The notes under the pieces were generated by a model. The model ran no database searches. It saw only the letters and a list, made by a program, of their open reading frames with translations, and was not told the DNA's origin. DNA of 48,566 nucleotides. Origin: a virus (Duplodnaviria; Heunggongvirae; Uroviricota; Caudoviricetes). Position 1 is the first letter of the stretch. Every line of letters starts with the position of its first letter. Made by a program: the position numbers and the translations under genes. Shown in pieces: positions 2,757 to 37,307 of this stretch. The DNA is taken from the IMG/VR virus record IMGVR_UViG_2636415673_000004, positions 1 through 48,566 of that record; one strand, written 5' to 3'.

Positions 2757-3026
2757 TTAAGCCCATGTCCTTACATGCTGATCTGTCGTAATGAAAGGCA
2801 TTAAAGAAGATATGTTTTTACTGCTATCAACAATCCTCATGTTTACGAAAAAACCACCGCGATCAATGCCTGTACATCTTTCGTTTTCTGGCTCCTCGTA
2901 ATCGATAATGCAGCCAATAACATCAACAAGAACCCCGTTTTCTTCTTCAAGACTGAACAGGCCACTGTCATATACAATTGCGTTAAACTGTTCTCTGTTA
3001 TCGAATCGTAATGTTATATCTCGCAT
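2757..3026 (-). CDS. Hypothetical protein (89 aa), translationally coupled to stf; possible fibre accessory/assembly factor
   Basis: ATG overlaps the stf stop as TAATG; no recognisable domain. Confidence 0.4.
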   Translation of the reverse strand: MRDITLRFDNREQFNAIVYDSGLFSLEEENGVLVDVIGCIIDYEEPENERCTGIDRGGFFVNMRIVDSSKNISSLMPFITTDQHVRTWA

Positions 3027-5383
3027 TATACGTATTCCTTAAGCTGCGTATCTGACAATGCTCTGTTCCAGAAACGGAGGTTTTTTATATGACCATTAAG
3101 GTGTCGTAATCCTGTCGTCGTTTGCCCCCCGATACGAATCACGGCTGCTTCACGAATATATTTCCATACTGTTTTTGTTTCAGCGCTTATATGCTTATTT
3201 GCAAATGAGCATGTCATGCCGTCAGCCTTAACCCTGAATCCCATAACGAGATCCCTTACTCCGCATGATTCATATACACGTCGGTTAGCCCCGCCTATAT
3301 CGCAATACGAATAACCGTCCTGACTGATAGTTCCAGAAGAACCAAACCCCATAATAAATGGGCCTCCGGACTGGTGATTTTCTGAATCAATGACACGCGG
3401 TGCAGCATTATGAGAAATAAACCAGTTTTTATGGACTTCCACCATGAACGTAAAAGGCATGGTATACATATTTTTCATCAGCGGAAATTTACATAAATCT
3501 GATGCACGAGTCGCTGGCTCTGTTGTCGTTATGATGAAGGAAGTTGCACAAGCACCATACTCGAATTGCGGGGTGGTTACTTCTATCCAGTCACCTGTTG
3601 CAAAAGCTCCCACAGCTCTGTCGGCTGCAATTTGCAGCTGCGTACCAACCATTCCCCATTCTGGCAGACATTTCAGTGTTGCCTGAAAATATATCCATCC
3701 ACTACCAGGGTCGATTTCAAAGTTTGCTGTTAATAGCTGGGCATTGCCACCAGTAATTTGTAGTTCATGGGTCTGTAATGACAAATAGGCGTCGCAAAGG
3801 AAGGTGTATCCTTCCGAGTTATACCGTTCAAAACGGATACGTGCGCGAACATTGAGATCACTTCTTACCCTGAACGACGCGGTAACATACGGACCTTTAC
3901 TGTACTGATCATCGCCAGTCACATCTATGCCTTTGTTACCAGCAACTGTGCATATATTTCTCCCTGTTGTCGTTCCTGCTATATCGCTTCCTACCGTGAA
4001 ACGTCCATATTTAAACTCAAATTCATCTGTTGATGATGTTACAGATATACCACCGCTTTTATTCCACGCATCAGGATTAAAACTATTTACGAACATGTTT
4101 GTTCGCTGATTCTCTATCAGCAAACCATATTTTTCAAAACGAGGAACGTTATTACCTGCCACGGTAATATGCCCGGACTTATCAATATACGTTGCAGATG
4201 AAGCCCGGCTAAATTGGCATATGCCATTAACTGGCACAGTGATTTCATCGCTGCCGATGGTTATTGTTTTATACCCCGGCGCATACCCTGTTATCGCTTC
4301 CAGAGAATCATTCAAGGGTAGCCAGATATCAGGAAGCGGAGGGACAGAAGCAGGATCAGCGGCATCTTCTGCAATCCGGGCTGCATTCTCTGCTCTTGTT
4401 GCGGCTGACGTTGCTTCTGTCTCGCTGGCTGCTGCTTTTGTTTCGCTCGCCTTTGCGTTAGTTTCACTGGTTTTTGCAGCTTTTTGGCTATTAGCTGCCG
4501 CTGTTGCAGAACCAGCTGCAGCACTCTCGCTTTCGGCTGCTGCATCCTGACTGCTTTTCGCCGCAGTTTCGCTGGCTTTGGCATTCGTTTCGCTGGTCTT
4601 CGCTGCCGTCTGGCTGGACTTTGCGTTAGTTTCACTCGTCTTCGCAGCTTTCTGGCTGTTAGCCGCAGCAGTTGCTGATCCAGCTGCTGAAGTCGCAGAA
4701 CCGGCTGCCGCGCTCTCGCTTTGGGCTGCTGCAACCTGGCTGTTTTTTGCCGCAGTTTCACTGGCTTTGGCATTCGTTTCGCTGGTCTTCGCTGCCGTCT
4801 GGCTGGACTTTGCGTTGGTTTCGCTCGTCTTTGCGGCTGTCTCGCTGTTTTTCGCGTTGGTTTCTGATTTTTTGGCTGCTGTCGCGGAGTTTGCCGATGC
4901 AGTCTGTGAGGTCGCTGCCGCCTGTGCGCTGTTAGCTGCATTCGTTTCTGAGGTTTTCGCCGCGTTCTTCGATGATGCCGCTGCAGTTTCGGATTTCTTT
5001 GCCGCCGCTGCGCTCTGAGAGGCGGCTTCGGCGTTGCGTGCCGCTTCTTCCACCATTTCCTCAAAACGGCGCAATGCCTCCGGCATGACATCATCTTCCG
5101 TCATGGCACCGAGAAAATCATTCAGCGTACCTGGTCTGGAACCTTCATAGACGGTAATGGTCCCGGCATGTGAAGGCGGAAAACCTTCAACCAGCAGGGT
5201 GACGCTGTACTGGCCATACTCAACATCCATGCTGTAACGCCCGGCTTCATCAGGATTTTCAGAGGCCACCGTGTTCACCAGTACCGTGGTGCTGTTACGC
5301 TTTGCCTTCAGTTGAATAGTGCAGTTCTGTATTGGTTTTCCCGCACCATCTTTCAGCACACCTGAGATTTTTACTGCTGCCAT
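3026..5383 (-). CDS. stf: Side tail fibre protein Stf (about 785 aa) with lambda-Stf-like N-terminus, Ala/Ser/Thr tandem repeats and LamG-like C-terminal domain
   Basis: N-terminus MAAVKISGVLKDG... resembles lambda Stf; repeated KTSETNAK units; C-terminus ends in a ...NLRFWNRALSDTQL motif. ATG at 5383 preferred over GTG at 5389. Confidence 0.8.
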   Translation of the reverse strand: MAAVKISGVLKDGAGKPIQNCTIQLKAKRNSTTVLVNTVASENPDEAGRYSMDVEYGQYSVTLLVEGFPPSHAGTITVYEGSRPGTLNDFLGAMTEDDVMPEALRRFEEMVEEAARNAEAASQSAAAAKKSETAAASSKNAAKTSETNAANSAQAAATSQTASANSATAAKKSETNAKNSETAAKTSETNAKSSQTAAKTSETNAKASETAAKNSQVAAAQSESAAAGSATSAAGSATAAANSQKAAKTSETNAKSSQTAAKTSETNAKASETAAKSSQDAAAESESAAAGSATAAANSQKAAKTSETNAKASETKAAASETEATSAATRAENAARIAEDAADPASVPPLPDIWLPLNDSLEAITGYAPGYKTITIGSDEITVPVNGICQFSRASSATYIDKSGHITVAGNNVPRFEKYGLLIENQRTNMFVNSFNPDAWNKSGGISVTSSTDEFEFKYGRFTVGSDIAGTTTGRNICTVAGNKGIDVTGDDQYSKGPYVTASFRVRSDLNVRARIRFERYNSEGYTFLCDAYLSLQTHELQITGGNAQLLTANFEIDPGSGWIYFQATLKCLPEWGMVGTQLQIAADRAVGAFATGDWIEVTTPQFEYGACATSFIITTTEPATRASDLCKFPLMKNMYTMPFTFMVEVHKNWFISHNAAPRVIDSENHQSGGPFIMGFGSSGTISQDGYSYCDIGGANRRVYESCGVRDLVMGFRVKADGMTCSFANKHISAETKTVWKYIREAAVIRIGGQTTTGLRHLNGHIKNLRFWNRALSDTQLKEYV
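4420..4935. repeat. In-frame tandem DNA repeats (about 189-bp period) inside stf
   Basis: The block ccgcagtttc(g/a)ctggctttggcattcgtttcgctggtcttcgctgccgtctggctggactttgcgtt occurs at about 4561 and 4750, with degenerate copies upstream. Confidence 0.7.
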
Positions 5384-5394
5384 ATCCACTCCAC

Positions 5395-34554: not shown

Positions 34555-34877
34555 ACTTTCAGGCCTCTCTCATGTAACCAATGGGCTGCACGCAGCCTGG
34601 CGTTTTCCTCACCGGCAAGCAGTGAGCGGATAATCCCGACCGCCTCGCTGTCGTCGTCCTTCGCCACGGTATGAAGCGTGATCCCCCGGGCCACACCACG
34701 CTTTATCGTGATGACGCCTTTTTTCTCCAGTGCGCGAAGATGCTCCACCGCTGCATTCACTGAACGGTATCCCAGCATGGTTGCCACCTCCAGATTGGTT
34801 GGCGGGAAGCCACGTTCTTTCTGATAAGAAATCAGCATATCCAGCACCTGCTGCTGGCATTGAGTTAACGTCGTCAT
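34551..34877 (-). CDS. LexA-like winged-HTH DNA-binding protein lacking the S24 peptidase domain (108 aa)
   Basis: MTTLTQCQQQVLDMLISYQKERGFPPTNLEVATMLGYRSVNAAVEHLRALEKKGVITIKRGVARGITL aligns with the LexA N-terminal DBD; no Ser/Lys peptidase domain follows. Confidence 0.65.
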   Translation of the reverse strand: MTTLTQCQQQVLDMLISYQKERGFPPTNLEVATMLGYRSVNAAVEHLRALEKKGVITIKRGVARGITLHTVAKDDDSEAVGIIRSLLAGEENARLRAAHWLHERGLKV

Positions 34878-35527
34878 GCCGCCATCTCCCTGACCAGTTT
34901 TTCCGCCTGCTGGCGAACCTGCGCCAGAAACGCCTCACCACATGCCTCAAGTTCATCGCGCCCGATGTAGCTGATTGCCGGTCCCTTCCAGGTCTTGTCG
35001 AAAACAGCAATAGCACCAGCGAAGAAAGCGCCTGTCGGCACCTGCTTCTCATCTTTCGGGATAAACCAGGCAGGCAGTTCAAAACCAATACGCCCGCGAA
35101 TAAAAGCAATATGATCTGCATCTTCCGGCCACCACACTTCGCTGGTGGCAGCTTTGATCAGGAAAACATAGCGCCCGCCTTTATCACGCATGGCACTGGC
35201 ATGTTTCATGATGTAACGCATGCCGGTGATGTATTGCCCCTCATGCTGACTGGCGCGGCTGTATGGGGGATTACCAAAGGCAGCACCTTTAAGCTCCGCA
35301 AGACGTTCTGACCAGTCATGCGCCAGCGCGTTGTCTTCCGCCGTGTAATACGCGGCACATTTGGCGTTATCACCATCGGTAAACAGATCCAGAACAAACG
35401 GGCCAAACAGGGTGTTAATCCCCCAGAAAATGTTATCCGGCGTGCGCCACTGATCGCCCACTTCCTTCAGTTCATGGGCTGGTTTGTTCCGCAGTTCCAC
35501 CAGTGCCTGACAATATTTATTACTCAT
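34874..35527 (-). CDS. Phage-type DNA N6-adenine methyltransferase (about 217 aa)
   Basis: NPPY catalytic motif (GNPPYSR); ATG at 35527 forms a TAATG overlap with the upstream stop (ORF-track frame begins with GTG at 35560). Confidence 0.75.
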   Translation of the reverse strand: MSNKYCQALVELRNKPAHELKEVGDQWRTPDNIFWGINTLFGPFVLDLFTDGDNAKCAAYYTAEDNALAHDWSERLAELKGAAFGNPPYSRASQHEGQYITGMRYIMKHASAMRDKGGRYVFLIKAATSEVWWPEDADHIAFIRGRIGFELPAWFIPKDEKQVPTGAFFAGAIAVFDKTWKGPAISYIGRDELEACGEAFLAQVRQQAEKLVREMAA

Positions 35528-36021
35528 TAAGCCCCCACGTAATTCCCTGACAGATACCACTCTTCACCCGATGCAGCGCGCTTGCTGCTTTTCCGTAAGC
35601 ACCGCTCACGACGCGCCAGAAAATTGTTTCGTTCTGGCTGGGAGTGGCTTTCACGGAATGCCGCCATCCACACGGTTGCAGCACGACGAAATAAGCCCCT
35701 GGACTCCAGTTCTTCAGCCTGGCGGGTCAGGCACAAAATCACCCGGGGATCGTTAGTGCCGACATAGAAATTGCGCACAGGTCTGGTTTCACGAACTGGT
35801 TGTGGTTCCGGCTCCTGCGCTCTCTCAGTCAGGCGCGGGAAATGTCTGCGTGTATCTCCTTCACAACGGTGAGCCACACGCCCGCTCTGACGTAACTTGC
35901 TTGCTGACTGCAGTACGCGCTGCCGTGAGTAACCTGCAAAAGCATCCGCAATGTCTCCGGAAGTACACCCCGGATGGGCTTCAATGAATTTCTGAACGTC
36001 ATTCAAAAGACTCATGCTCAC
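35527..36021 (-). CDS. Hypothetical protein with PerC-like C-terminal region (164 aa)
   Basis: ELESRGLFRRAATVWMAAF...ERNNFLARRERCL resembles the PerC/Pch motif (LExRGLWRRAA); N-terminal half unassigned. Confidence 0.4.
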   Translation of the reverse strand: MSMSLLNDVQKFIEAHPGCTSGDIADAFAGYSRQRVLQSASKLRQSGRVAHRCEGDTRRHFPRLTERAQEPEPQPVRETRPVRNFYVGTNDPRVILCLTRQAEELESRGLFRRAATVWMAAFRESHSQPERNNFLARRERCLRKSSKRAASGEEWYLSGNYVGA

Positions 36022-36959
36022 CCCCTGAATCCTGCCGGGATCTGGCTGTAGTCCACATTGTCGTAACTGGCTTTGAAGTACGGGTCTTCGCGTTTTTCTG
36101 TGTACGTGCTGATGGACGGCGATAAGCGCAGGGAAAGCTCATCCCATTTTTCCCGCAGCTTCGACGGGCTGAGCACGTTACGGCACCAGAACGGATCGCG
36201 GCTGATGCGGCTGTACATCTCGCAGATTTGTTTGTGAGTACGACCATCCTGCACACACATCAGGCGAATTTCGTTTGCCCAGGCTGTCCAGTTCGGTTCT
36301 TTGGGACGAACCACCTCGCCGTCACATTCGGCGGCCTGCTCGTACAGGGCGATGATTTTTTTCCAGAGCCACTGTGCGCAGGTCAAATCATCCTGCGTTC
36401 CCCACTGGCACTTTTTAGGGCTGAATACAACCGCATCAGGATGGCGAGTTAAAAAATCCTGTTCAGCCGTCTGCGTGTCCGGTTGCGAAACGTCCGGACG
36501 AGAAGGTTTTTTATCTGACGGATCATATTTTGATTTTACTGACGGATCCCCGCCAGATTCTGACGGGTGAAAACCCGCTTTTTTGCCAGATTTCGACGCA
36601 TCAAATTTTGACGGGTCAGATTTTGATGCGTCAGATTTTGACGGGTCAGAATCTGACAGTTGAGAAAATGCCGCGGCCTGAAGCTTCGCAACGTTAAGCT
36701 GATAAACATTCGACGCATTACGGTTACCCTGGCGACGCGCCTTACGCGTTAACCAGCCTTCTGCTTCCAGCCGTGCAATAGCCGTTCTGACGGTACTCAT
36801 CCCCGCGCCAATCTGGCGGGCAATGGTTTCAATCGATGGCCAGCACACACCTTCGTCATTACTGAAATCAGCCAGGCGGGCCATAATTGCCACACTGGAT
36901 AATTTCATGCCTGACGCTGCGCAACCATCCCATACATAGCCGGTTAATTTAGTGCTCAT
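36018..36959 (-). CDS. Replication initiation protein (N-terminal HTH, repeat-encoded linker, C-terminal helical domain), 313 aa
   Basis: HTH region (SIETIARQIGAGMSTVRTAIARLEAEGWL); the SDPSKSDASKSDPSKFDASKS linker is encoded by DNA iterons; sits in the O position after cro/cII-like genes. Confidence 0.6.
   Translation of the reverse strand: MSTKLTGYVWDGCAASGMKLSSVAIMARLADFSNDEGVCWPSIETIARQIGAGMSTVRTAIARLEAEGWLTRKARRQGNRNASNVYQLNVAKLQAAAFSQLSDSDPSKSDASKSDPSKFDASKSGKKAGFHPSESGGDPSVKSKYDPSDKKPSRPDVSQPDTQTAEQDFLTRHPDAVVFSPKKCQWGTQDDLTCAQWLWKKIIALYEQAAECDGEVVRPKEPNWTAWANEIRLMCVQDGRTHKQICEMYSRISRDPFWCRNVLSPSKLREKWDELSLRLSPSISTYTEKREDPYFKASYDNVDYSQIPAGFRG
36510..36665. repeat. Iteron array (candidate replication origin) inside the replication gene
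   Basis: About 8 copies of a TGACGG(G/A)T-centred 15-bp unit at 15-24 bp spacing (for example ttttgacgggtcaga twice). Confidence 0.55.
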
Positions 36960-36968
36960 GACCGACCT

Positions 36969-37307
36969 CTATTTCCCTGAATTTACGACGAAACTGTTCG
37001 AGCGGGCTGAAGCACTCATGCTCATAGCCTTCGCGGAGGTAGATAACCCGTTGTGTTTCCGGTTCCCAACGAATGACTCTGACGGGTACTCCGTAGTGAT
37101 CTTTGAACCAGCGGTTAACTTGTCGCAAAGGACTGTCTCCTTCTGCCGGTTGAAATCACCCACAGCCCACTCAGCAAAGCTGTGGGTTACAATTTCCCTG
37201 TCACCTGGTACATTTACTGCATAGCAATACTCCACCTTCGCTTTTCCACCCGGTACAGGAAGCGCAATCAGTTGCGAGCGACGGTAGTGTGTTGTTAAAC
37301 TGTTCAT
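36969..37307 (-). CDS. Hypothetical ORF coupled to the CII-like gene; possibly frame-disrupted
   Basis: ATG overlaps the upstream stop (ATGA); N-terminal half looks protein-like, C-terminal half is low-complexity while an alternative frame encodes a better sequence. Confidence 0.35.

Follow-up and report, generated by a model that had tools for sequence, protein, structure and literature searches.

A probable replication origin inside the solo O-like initiator gene of an SfIV-type lambdoid phage, and a DnaT-like tail as a candidate for helicase recruitment

Origins of replication that lie inside initiator genes are classic for phage lambda, the iterons of which are ~19 bp long. Winged-helix iteron initiators include the pSC101/R6K/P1-type plasmid Reps, P22 gene 18 and SPP1 G38P, whose own gene contains oriL; as a rule, the plasmid Reps work with DnaA and with the DnaC of the host. 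In ori-lambda, iterons and an AT-rich tract occupy the central part of gene O (PMC7466680; also PMC6022878), and the number of iterons differs between lambda and Stx phages, altering the length of O (PMC7466680). Modules that contain O only, e.g. those of phage LLS and mEp460_4F5, are found in 34 of 314 lambdoid phages; according to a 2025 survey, none of them has been studied and their replication 'is not yet understood' (PMC12315714). Its account of these modules mentions neither an origin nor iterons nor a DnaT-like tail, and the terms 'origin of replication' and 'initiator' are absent from the paper. The genome paper of SfIV makes no mention of an origin. For the O-only lambdoid prophages (SfII/SfIV/SfV, mEp460, several Stx2 phages and others Enterobacterales-wide) the origin and the helicase-loading route are so far undescribed.

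The window, i.e. the whole 48.5-kb stretch of DNA that was analysed (48,566 nt), is overall the genome of a lambda-like siphovirus whose early region is of the SfIV type. Its replication module has one replication gene only, a 'solo' initiator on the minus strand (36018-36959, 313 aa plus stop), located past cro-like and cII-like genes and facing a cI-like repressor, as the lambda gene is placed in its pR-type operon past cro and cII. At the nucleotide level this gene is 98.5% identical to gp41 of Shigella phage SfIV and 98.2% identical to the 'O protein family' gene of SfII. PHROG 391, 'replication initiation O-like', covers the protein from end to end (E 5e-134), and an NCBIfam scan of it returned no useful family. 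Three parts can be distinguished: an HTH_36 winged-helix domain, a low-complexity linker (aa ~99-160) and a C-terminal domain. The N-terminal DNA-binding domain (aa 1-98, 36666-36959, minus strand) matches Pfam HTH_36 at aa 23-70 (E 4e-11) and, more weakly, GntR, MarR and DnaD_N. A sequence search of the whole initiator against solved structures gave weak matches to MarR/PaaX winged helices, with no DnaT and no O C-domain structure. The C-terminal domain (aa 166-277, 36129-36464, minus strand) is homologous to that of lambda O (aa 171-270 of lambda O; 39% identical across 112 aa in BLASTP, E 6e-25), and tblastn likewise hits lambda, gene 15 of phi80 and Stx1 phages. The AF2 model built for the last 150 aa (pLDDT 74.9) contains a helical bundle at pLDDT 76-93 and a C-terminal tail that is predicted to be disordered (pLDDT 43-56); Foldseek found no match to this model in the PDB below E=2.7. 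Judged by the PHROG assignment and the lambda O C-domain, the protein is an initiator.

In this gene as in ori-lambda and O, repeats occupy the linker-coding middle of the initiator gene, and on their promoter-distal side comes a stretch that is richer in AT, though only moderately so here. The sites have a partly palindromic character in both, and the repeat number varies between phages, changing the length of the protein (PMC7466680). An initial annotation of this DNA had drawn the same parallel, and the likeness goes beyond what it described, since the homology with lambda O includes the C-terminal domain (aa 166-277). However, lambda O matches PF04492 (Phage_rep_O) at 5.7e-36, whereas the window protein has HTH_36 and no PF04492 match. 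The units here are 15-bp hexamer units, whereas the lambda iterons are longer, the AT-rich tract is weak, and the window has no P gene to make up an O-P system. On these comparisons the arrangement would work like ori-lambda and O, but its DNA-binding domain places the protein outside the lambda O family. The module shares with the O-only lambdoid modules a single O-like gene and the lack of a helicase or loader (PMC12315714). Like the plasmid and phage iteron initiators, it pairs a winged-helix protein with tandem short repeats beside or inside the protein's own gene. Weak Pfam matches connect the initiator to DnaD_N and to the Replication protein C N-terminal domain, and at curated Pfam thresholds it has no membership of the plasmid or phage iteron-initiator families. 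A further difference from the plasmid Reps is the lack of DnaA boxes: a DnaA-box scan returned fewer matches than shuffles and none in or near the array.

The repeat array itself lies at 36514-36657 (plus-strand coordinates), within the part of the gene that codes for the linker (aa 99-160). The window contains eight exact copies of TGACGGRT where 2.3 would be expected from shuffles, none of 100 shuffles reaching eight, and five of these copies fall within 131 bp in the array (36516, 36540, 36561, 36609 and 36639). Degenerate copies are found at 36594 (CGACGCAT), 36624 (TGATGCGT) and 36654 (TGACAGTT). The initial annotation had counted about eight TGACGG(G/A)T repeats 15-24 bp apart; the count stands as five exact and three degenerate units, but the spacing does not hold throughout, the successive distances being 24, 21, 33, 15, 15, 15 and 15 bp. 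The interval that it had given for the array (36510-36665) was right. Read on the minus strand, each unit specifies xD(P/A)S(K)S in the linker, which the initial annotation had given as SDPSKS/DASKS, and the linker peptide reads ...SDSDPSKSDASKSDPSKFDASKS...FHPSESGGDPSVKSKYDPSDKK.... TRF detects a 15-bp period with 4.3 copies at 36587-36650, and the only short-period arrays in the 48.5-kb window are this one and a coding repeat in the tail fibre. Two ORFs that cross the array in alternative frames (36530-36697, plus strand; 36536-36718, minus strand) were dismissed as by-products of the repeats and not genes.

A closer inspection reveals that the array is better described by a hexamer in alternating orientation, TCTGAC / GTCAGA, giving a unit of 6+2+6+1 = 15 bp. 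The tandem iterons at 36592-36657 consist of nine such alternating hexamers, 2 and 1 nt apart with a 15-bp period: TTCGAC GC ATCAAA T TTTGAC GG GTCAGA T TTTGAT GC GTCAGA T TTTGAC GG GTCAGA A TCTGAC. An imperfect inverted repeat of 35 nt spans 36584-36658. Across 346 units from relatives, the family consensus on the coding strand is TCTGAC-NNN-TCAAAA, with TCA at 97-100% and no constraint on the three bases in the centre; the copy number of the array ranges from ~3 to 8 among relatives. The hexamers are short, and the register of the binding site may be TGAC-N2-GTCA or GTCAGA-N-TCTGAC. The site that is best conserved in the family is a single-copy 17-bp palindrome at 36550-36566, CCGCCAGATTCTGACGG (coding strand CCGTCAGAATCTGGCGG), which encodes (F)HPSESGG; its codon identity is 0.85 (aa 131-140), with consensus columns of at least 95%, and in the 52%-identical distant relatives L086 and L088 its position is taken by CCTCCAGAATCTGGAGG. 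The promoter-distal part of the array (36500-36549) holds two extra half-site copies (TCTGACGGATCA at 36514 and ACTGACGGATCC at 36538), two GATC sites (36521 and 36545) and an AT-rich stretch of 40 bp. The latter (36500-36539) has 70% AT, the highest value for 40 bp within the local kilobase, but reaches only the 96th percentile in the window. The 36500-36549 stretch is a candidate unwinding element whose AT-richness is weak.

Selection on the DNA of this segment was assessed in six phage homologues and 80 loci from species-representative genomes of many Enterobacterales genera, which left 81 distinct genes once truncated or fused genes were dropped. Per-column synonymous codon identity was 0.44 over aa 1-100 and 0.82 over aa 101-160 (Mann-Whitney, p=5e-19, 81 genes). 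It ranged from 0.73 to 0.94 in the linker segment, peaking at aa 141-150 (0.94), against 0.34-0.57 upstream, where the N-domain keeps its amino acids and synonymous sites are nearly saturated, and dropped again to 0.56 at aa 161-170. For D138 and D146, the GAT codon is kept in 100% of cases. In five gene pairs, columns with the same amino acid had an identical codon in 33-53% of cases in the N-domain vs 81-95% in the linker (Fisher p from 3e-7 to 8e-4 in the five comparisons). Recent transfer cannot explain this codon pattern, because amino-acid identity in the compared genes is lower in the linker than in the N-domain. The repeats show an extreme choice of codons: TCA stands for the Ser of D-x-S in 463/507 instances (91%) vs 21% elsewhere in the same genes, the second Ser of the repeat is TCT in 253/325 and the repeat Lys is AAA in 279/279. 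Moreover, the motif is not tied to reading frame. Phage phiP27 has TTTGACCCTTCAGAWTCTGG twice, 32 bp apart and in two reading frames, and a Citrobacter locus (L079) has TTTCACCCGTCAGAWTCTGAC twice, also in two frames; by frame, these ~20-nt motifs encode FDPSDSG / VLTLQNL and FHPSDSD / VFTRQNL respectively. These patterns make it almost certain that the array segment has a function at the DNA level, beyond coding for protein. The constrained segment, at ~36480-36660, is slightly wider than the interval of the initial annotation, and the proposed origin region is placed at 36480-36665, the DNA that codes for linker aa 99-160.

The repeats also behave as one module with the DNA-binding domain. 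One type of N-domain and array was found joined to three unrelated C-domains: a lambda-O type in the window and Klebsiella phage 1 LV-2017, Pfam Phg_2220_C in Flotzy, YeP3, phiNP and most genome loci, and a SfV/phiP27 type. Conversely, mEp460_4F5 is a natural chimera that has the 3' part of this gene at ~97% nucleotide identity, counted from window position ~36505, preceded by an unrelated N-domain with five repeats of its own at a 23-bp period; the sequence switches exactly at the edge of the array. With a period of 23 bp these repeats cannot be a peptide repeat. Orf39 of SfV carries another HTH_36 domain and different repeats at the equivalent place (spacings 24/42 and 17/12), and L086 and L088 combine a changed recognition helix with different repeats there. 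The repeats thus change with the DNA-binding domain and stay when only the C-domain is swapped. Such co-inheritance and co-variation of an N-domain with the adjoining repeats is, at the level of sequence comparison, the signature of an initiator and its iterons, and we infer that the repeats are read by the N-terminal winged-helix domain. As a rule for the family, each DNA-binding domain travels with a set of in-gene repeats of its own, and the array accounts for the hypervariable linker of these genes.

Taken together, these data point to the array at ~36480-36660, inside the phage's own initiator gene, as its replication origin, a reading to which we give a probability of roughly three in four. 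The parallel with oriLambda inside gene O is borne out by the selection on DNA, the motif in two frames, the co-inheritance with the N-domain and the repeats specific to each N-domain. The reading would supply a defined candidate origin of ~180 bp with a consensus iteron. It is improbable that the array is a protein-bound cis element of another kind, either an autoregulatory roadblock or operator or a hotspot of recombination for the exchange of initiator modules. The constraint on DNA and the co-inheritance with the N-domain show a DNA function without specifying which, the edge of the array is exactly where mEp460_4F5 has its recombination joint, and the neighbouring AT-rich element is a weak one. 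However, any phage that has an O-like initiator needs an origin, and a non-origin role for this array would leave the phage without a candidate since the 48.5-kb window has no second iteron-like array. The C-domain has one well-studied relative, lambda O, and there the corresponding repeats within the gene are the origin (PMC7466680); joints at the origin are to be expected if origin and DNA-binding domain must stay together.

A very unlikely alternative places the constraint on the mRNA, where the inverted hexamers would fold into a long hairpin acting on translation, on stability or on transcription through the rep gene. The predicted fold of the array RNA is indeed more stable than that of shuffles (MFE -57.9 kcal/mol vs -39.0 +/- 4.2, z=-4.5), so that a contribution at the RNA level is conceivable, and the 35-nt inverted repeat would suit it, but the most constrained codons (aa 141-150) are predicted to be unpaired in that fold. 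A repeat number of ~3 to 8 would alter any hairpin, the sites vary in their centres of 2-3 nt with no paired compensation seen, and an RNA hairpin does not predict repeats that differ with the N-domain. An Rfam match of the array to a microRNA family scored 30.7 bits against a threshold of 97 and was set aside as spurious. Hardly credible is a mere low-complexity protein linker of SDxSKS repeats, produced by replication slippage and without function as DNA: it would fit the single frame of all the window copies, the 15-bp period (a multiple of 3) and a copy number that varies as in slippage products, but is largely refuted by the codon and frame data, as linker amino acids vary more than those of the domain whilst synonymous sites vary much less, the extreme codon choice is common to many genera, phiP27 and L079 have out-of-frame copies, and the spacings of 23 bp in mEp460_4F5 and 17 bp in SfV orf39 are not multiples of 3.

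If the array is the origin, initiation could proceed as follows. Dimers of the HTH_36 domain would bind the palindromic pairs of hexamers and, along the ~150-bp array, build up into a nucleoprotein complex. The part that opens would be the adjoining, moderately AT-rich and GATC-bearing stretch (36500-36540), helped by transcription of the cro-cII-rep operon, which crosses the array. More tentatively, the DnaB helicase of the host may be brought in by the initiator itself, as genes for P, DnaC and DnaB are absent. This recruitment might run through the lambda-O-like C-domain and above all through the disordered, DnaT-derived tail, which could engage the usual host partner of the DnaT tail, whether DnaB-DnaC or a protein of the PriA pathway.

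The statement in the initial annotation that no helicase loader follows the initiator agrees with the gene order, the downstream genes being PerC-like, Dam methylase, LexA-like and RusA, and with a tblastn search of the window (E<=1e-5) using E. coli DnaC, lambda P and the DnaC-like and DnaB-like proteins of phiP27, which found no match. SfIV has the same solo initiator arrangement. The PerC-like gene was considered as a hidden loader and rejected because it is missing from phages with the same type of initiator (Klebsiella phage 1 LV-2017, Flotzy and phiNP). A search of protein databases with the C-terminal 150 aa, which had been proposed together with direct recruitment of host factors by this part of the protein, yielded, besides variants of a DnaT-like tail, mostly fragmentary relatives without a Pfam domain in this part. 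For direct recruitment, the DnaT-derived tail is now a concrete candidate.

This tail, SQIPAGFRG (aa 305-313, 36021-36047, minus strand), is a candidate host-recruitment motif, sharing 8/9 residues with SQIPPGFRG, the very C-terminal end of DnaT from E. coli. The conserved extreme C-terminal tail of DnaT, ...SEPDxxIPPGFRG, is present in the family: relatives such as P0072 match DnaT residues 150-179 at 19/30 positions (E 2e-8), and hhalign gives the DnaT tail a probability of 89%, for the tail only. The window protein aligns with DnaT over its last 9 residues only, and relatives over 20-30. In Pfam and in sequence comparison with the DnaT structure, the initiator has no counterpart of the DnaT N-domain or of its ssDNA-binding three-helix bundle (residues 84-153), so that the tail alone is in common with E. 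coli DnaT (primosomal protein i). The tail match is probably behind the database name 'primosomal protein I' of these phage genes. By the same comparison the name is misleading, because the likeness to DnaT is confined to the tail; the initiator is not DnaT.

The tail offers a specific candidate for the missing loader function, and it is possible, though we hold it at somewhat less than even odds, that it acts as a device for helicase recruitment. In this tentative proposal, which we judge to be equally uncertain, O-only lambdoid phages would need no loader because their initiators have captured a short linear motif of host DnaT (residues ~150-179, ...SEPDxxIPxGFRG), through which the origin-bound initiator would plug directly into DnaB-DnaC or the PriA pathway by mimicry of the DnaT tail. 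The DnaT papers covered report no partner for residues 150-179 and state that how DnaT recruits DnaB/DnaC is unknown. The tail also gives a handle on a question of E. coli replication restart, namely the link from DnaT to DnaB/DnaC; were the mimicry true, the phage data would identify the element by which DnaT hands over to them. Among tailed genes, 49/51 are without a DnaC, P or DnaB homologue within 4 kb, and seven of nine genes with a loader or helicase neighbour are without the tail (Fisher p=0.01, kinship ignored). The tail cannot be the sole solution, because 22 relatives have neither tail nor loader; these carry a different C-terminal extension of ~50 aa. Lambda O is without a DnaT-like tail, in which it differs from the window protein. 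The tail occurs on all three unrelated types of C-domain, and the SfV-type initiators of Stx2a_1447, mEp460 and Ayreon are both solo and tailed.

The C-terminal end of the initiator (aa 305-313, encoded at 36021-36047) resembles the C-terminal tail of host DnaT, an assignment based on a sequence match in which 8 of 9 residues are identical. Among relatives cited for this tail (P0072, P0077 and P0033 from the protein-database search, and rep-gene locus L012), the likeness to DnaT residues 150-179 reaches 19 matching positions out of 30. DnaT-like tails were found on three initiator C-domains that are unrelated to one another. Moreover, the tail is mostly missing from initiators that have a DnaC or P gene nearby. 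A further 22 members of the family have neither the tail nor a nearby loader gene (loci L022, L028, L030, L045, L047, L051, L058, L061-L063 and L068-L077 and phage YeP3, L006, among them). These carry another C-terminal extension of approximately 50 aa, ending in ...(N)IWKECxQR...AA or GIWQQAAEQAAKEVAA, which may be an alternative device for host recruitment.

Phage mEp460_4F5 has a rep gene (L093) that is a natural chimera: the C-terminal half shares ~97% identity with the window gene, and the junction falls at ~36505 in window coordinates. The N-domain of this rep gene is unrelated and matched no Pfam family. Five CATYRGGTCAAAATG-like repeats with a 23-bp period lie within its linker (L093:3534-3649). 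Parts of the initiator are also found in two E. coli chromosomes (CP178308, L064; CP178306, L087), where aa 1-79 are joined in frame to an unrelated ORF of 455 aa; this fusion looks like what a deletion has left of a prophage.

Within the proposed origin, the two GATC sites (36521 and 36545) are invariant in 80 relatives: D138 and D146 are encoded by GAT without exception (100% conservation), with CC following the codon in each case. A gene for a Dam-family methylase (34874-35560, minus strand) lies a short way downstream of the initiator, and an adenine methylase gene is located just 3′ of the initiator in many such phages (the window phage, SfV, Klebsiella phage 1 LV-2017, phiNP, YeP3 and Flotzy). 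It is possible that initiation at the proposed origin is under methylation control. On the plus strand, antisense to the rep gene, a terminator-like hairpin (CGGGTGAAAACCCG, 36564-36577, then the T-run CTTTTTTGCC), recognised only by consensus match, lies in the interval that separates the tandem iterons from the 17-bp palindrome.

A PerC-family gene (35527-36021, minus strand) starts in or beside the initiator stop codon, with a GTGA overlap. In SfIV, SfV, mEp460, Ayreon and Stx2 phages such a gene comes next after the initiator. It is missing from this position in Klebsiella phage 1 LV-2017, Flotzy and phiNP and is therefore ruled out as an obligatory replication partner. Immediately upstream of the initiator, two minus-strand ORFs that are read in different frames share ~160 nt. 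The 112-aa ORF (36969-37307) matches phrog_1170 end to end (E 2e-69), its N-terminal 63 aa additionally matching phrog_20047; the 59-aa ORF (36949-37128) matches phrog_1343 end to end (E 2e-34). The pair may represent two genes that overlap or else a frameshifted fusion of a kind that is often annotated.

Elsewhere in the window, tandem repeats of 189 and 42 bp (4506-4864) fall within a side-tail-fibre-like gene of 787 aa (3026-5389, minus strand). They encode KTSETNAKSSQTAA-type repeats and are an ordinary coding repeat.
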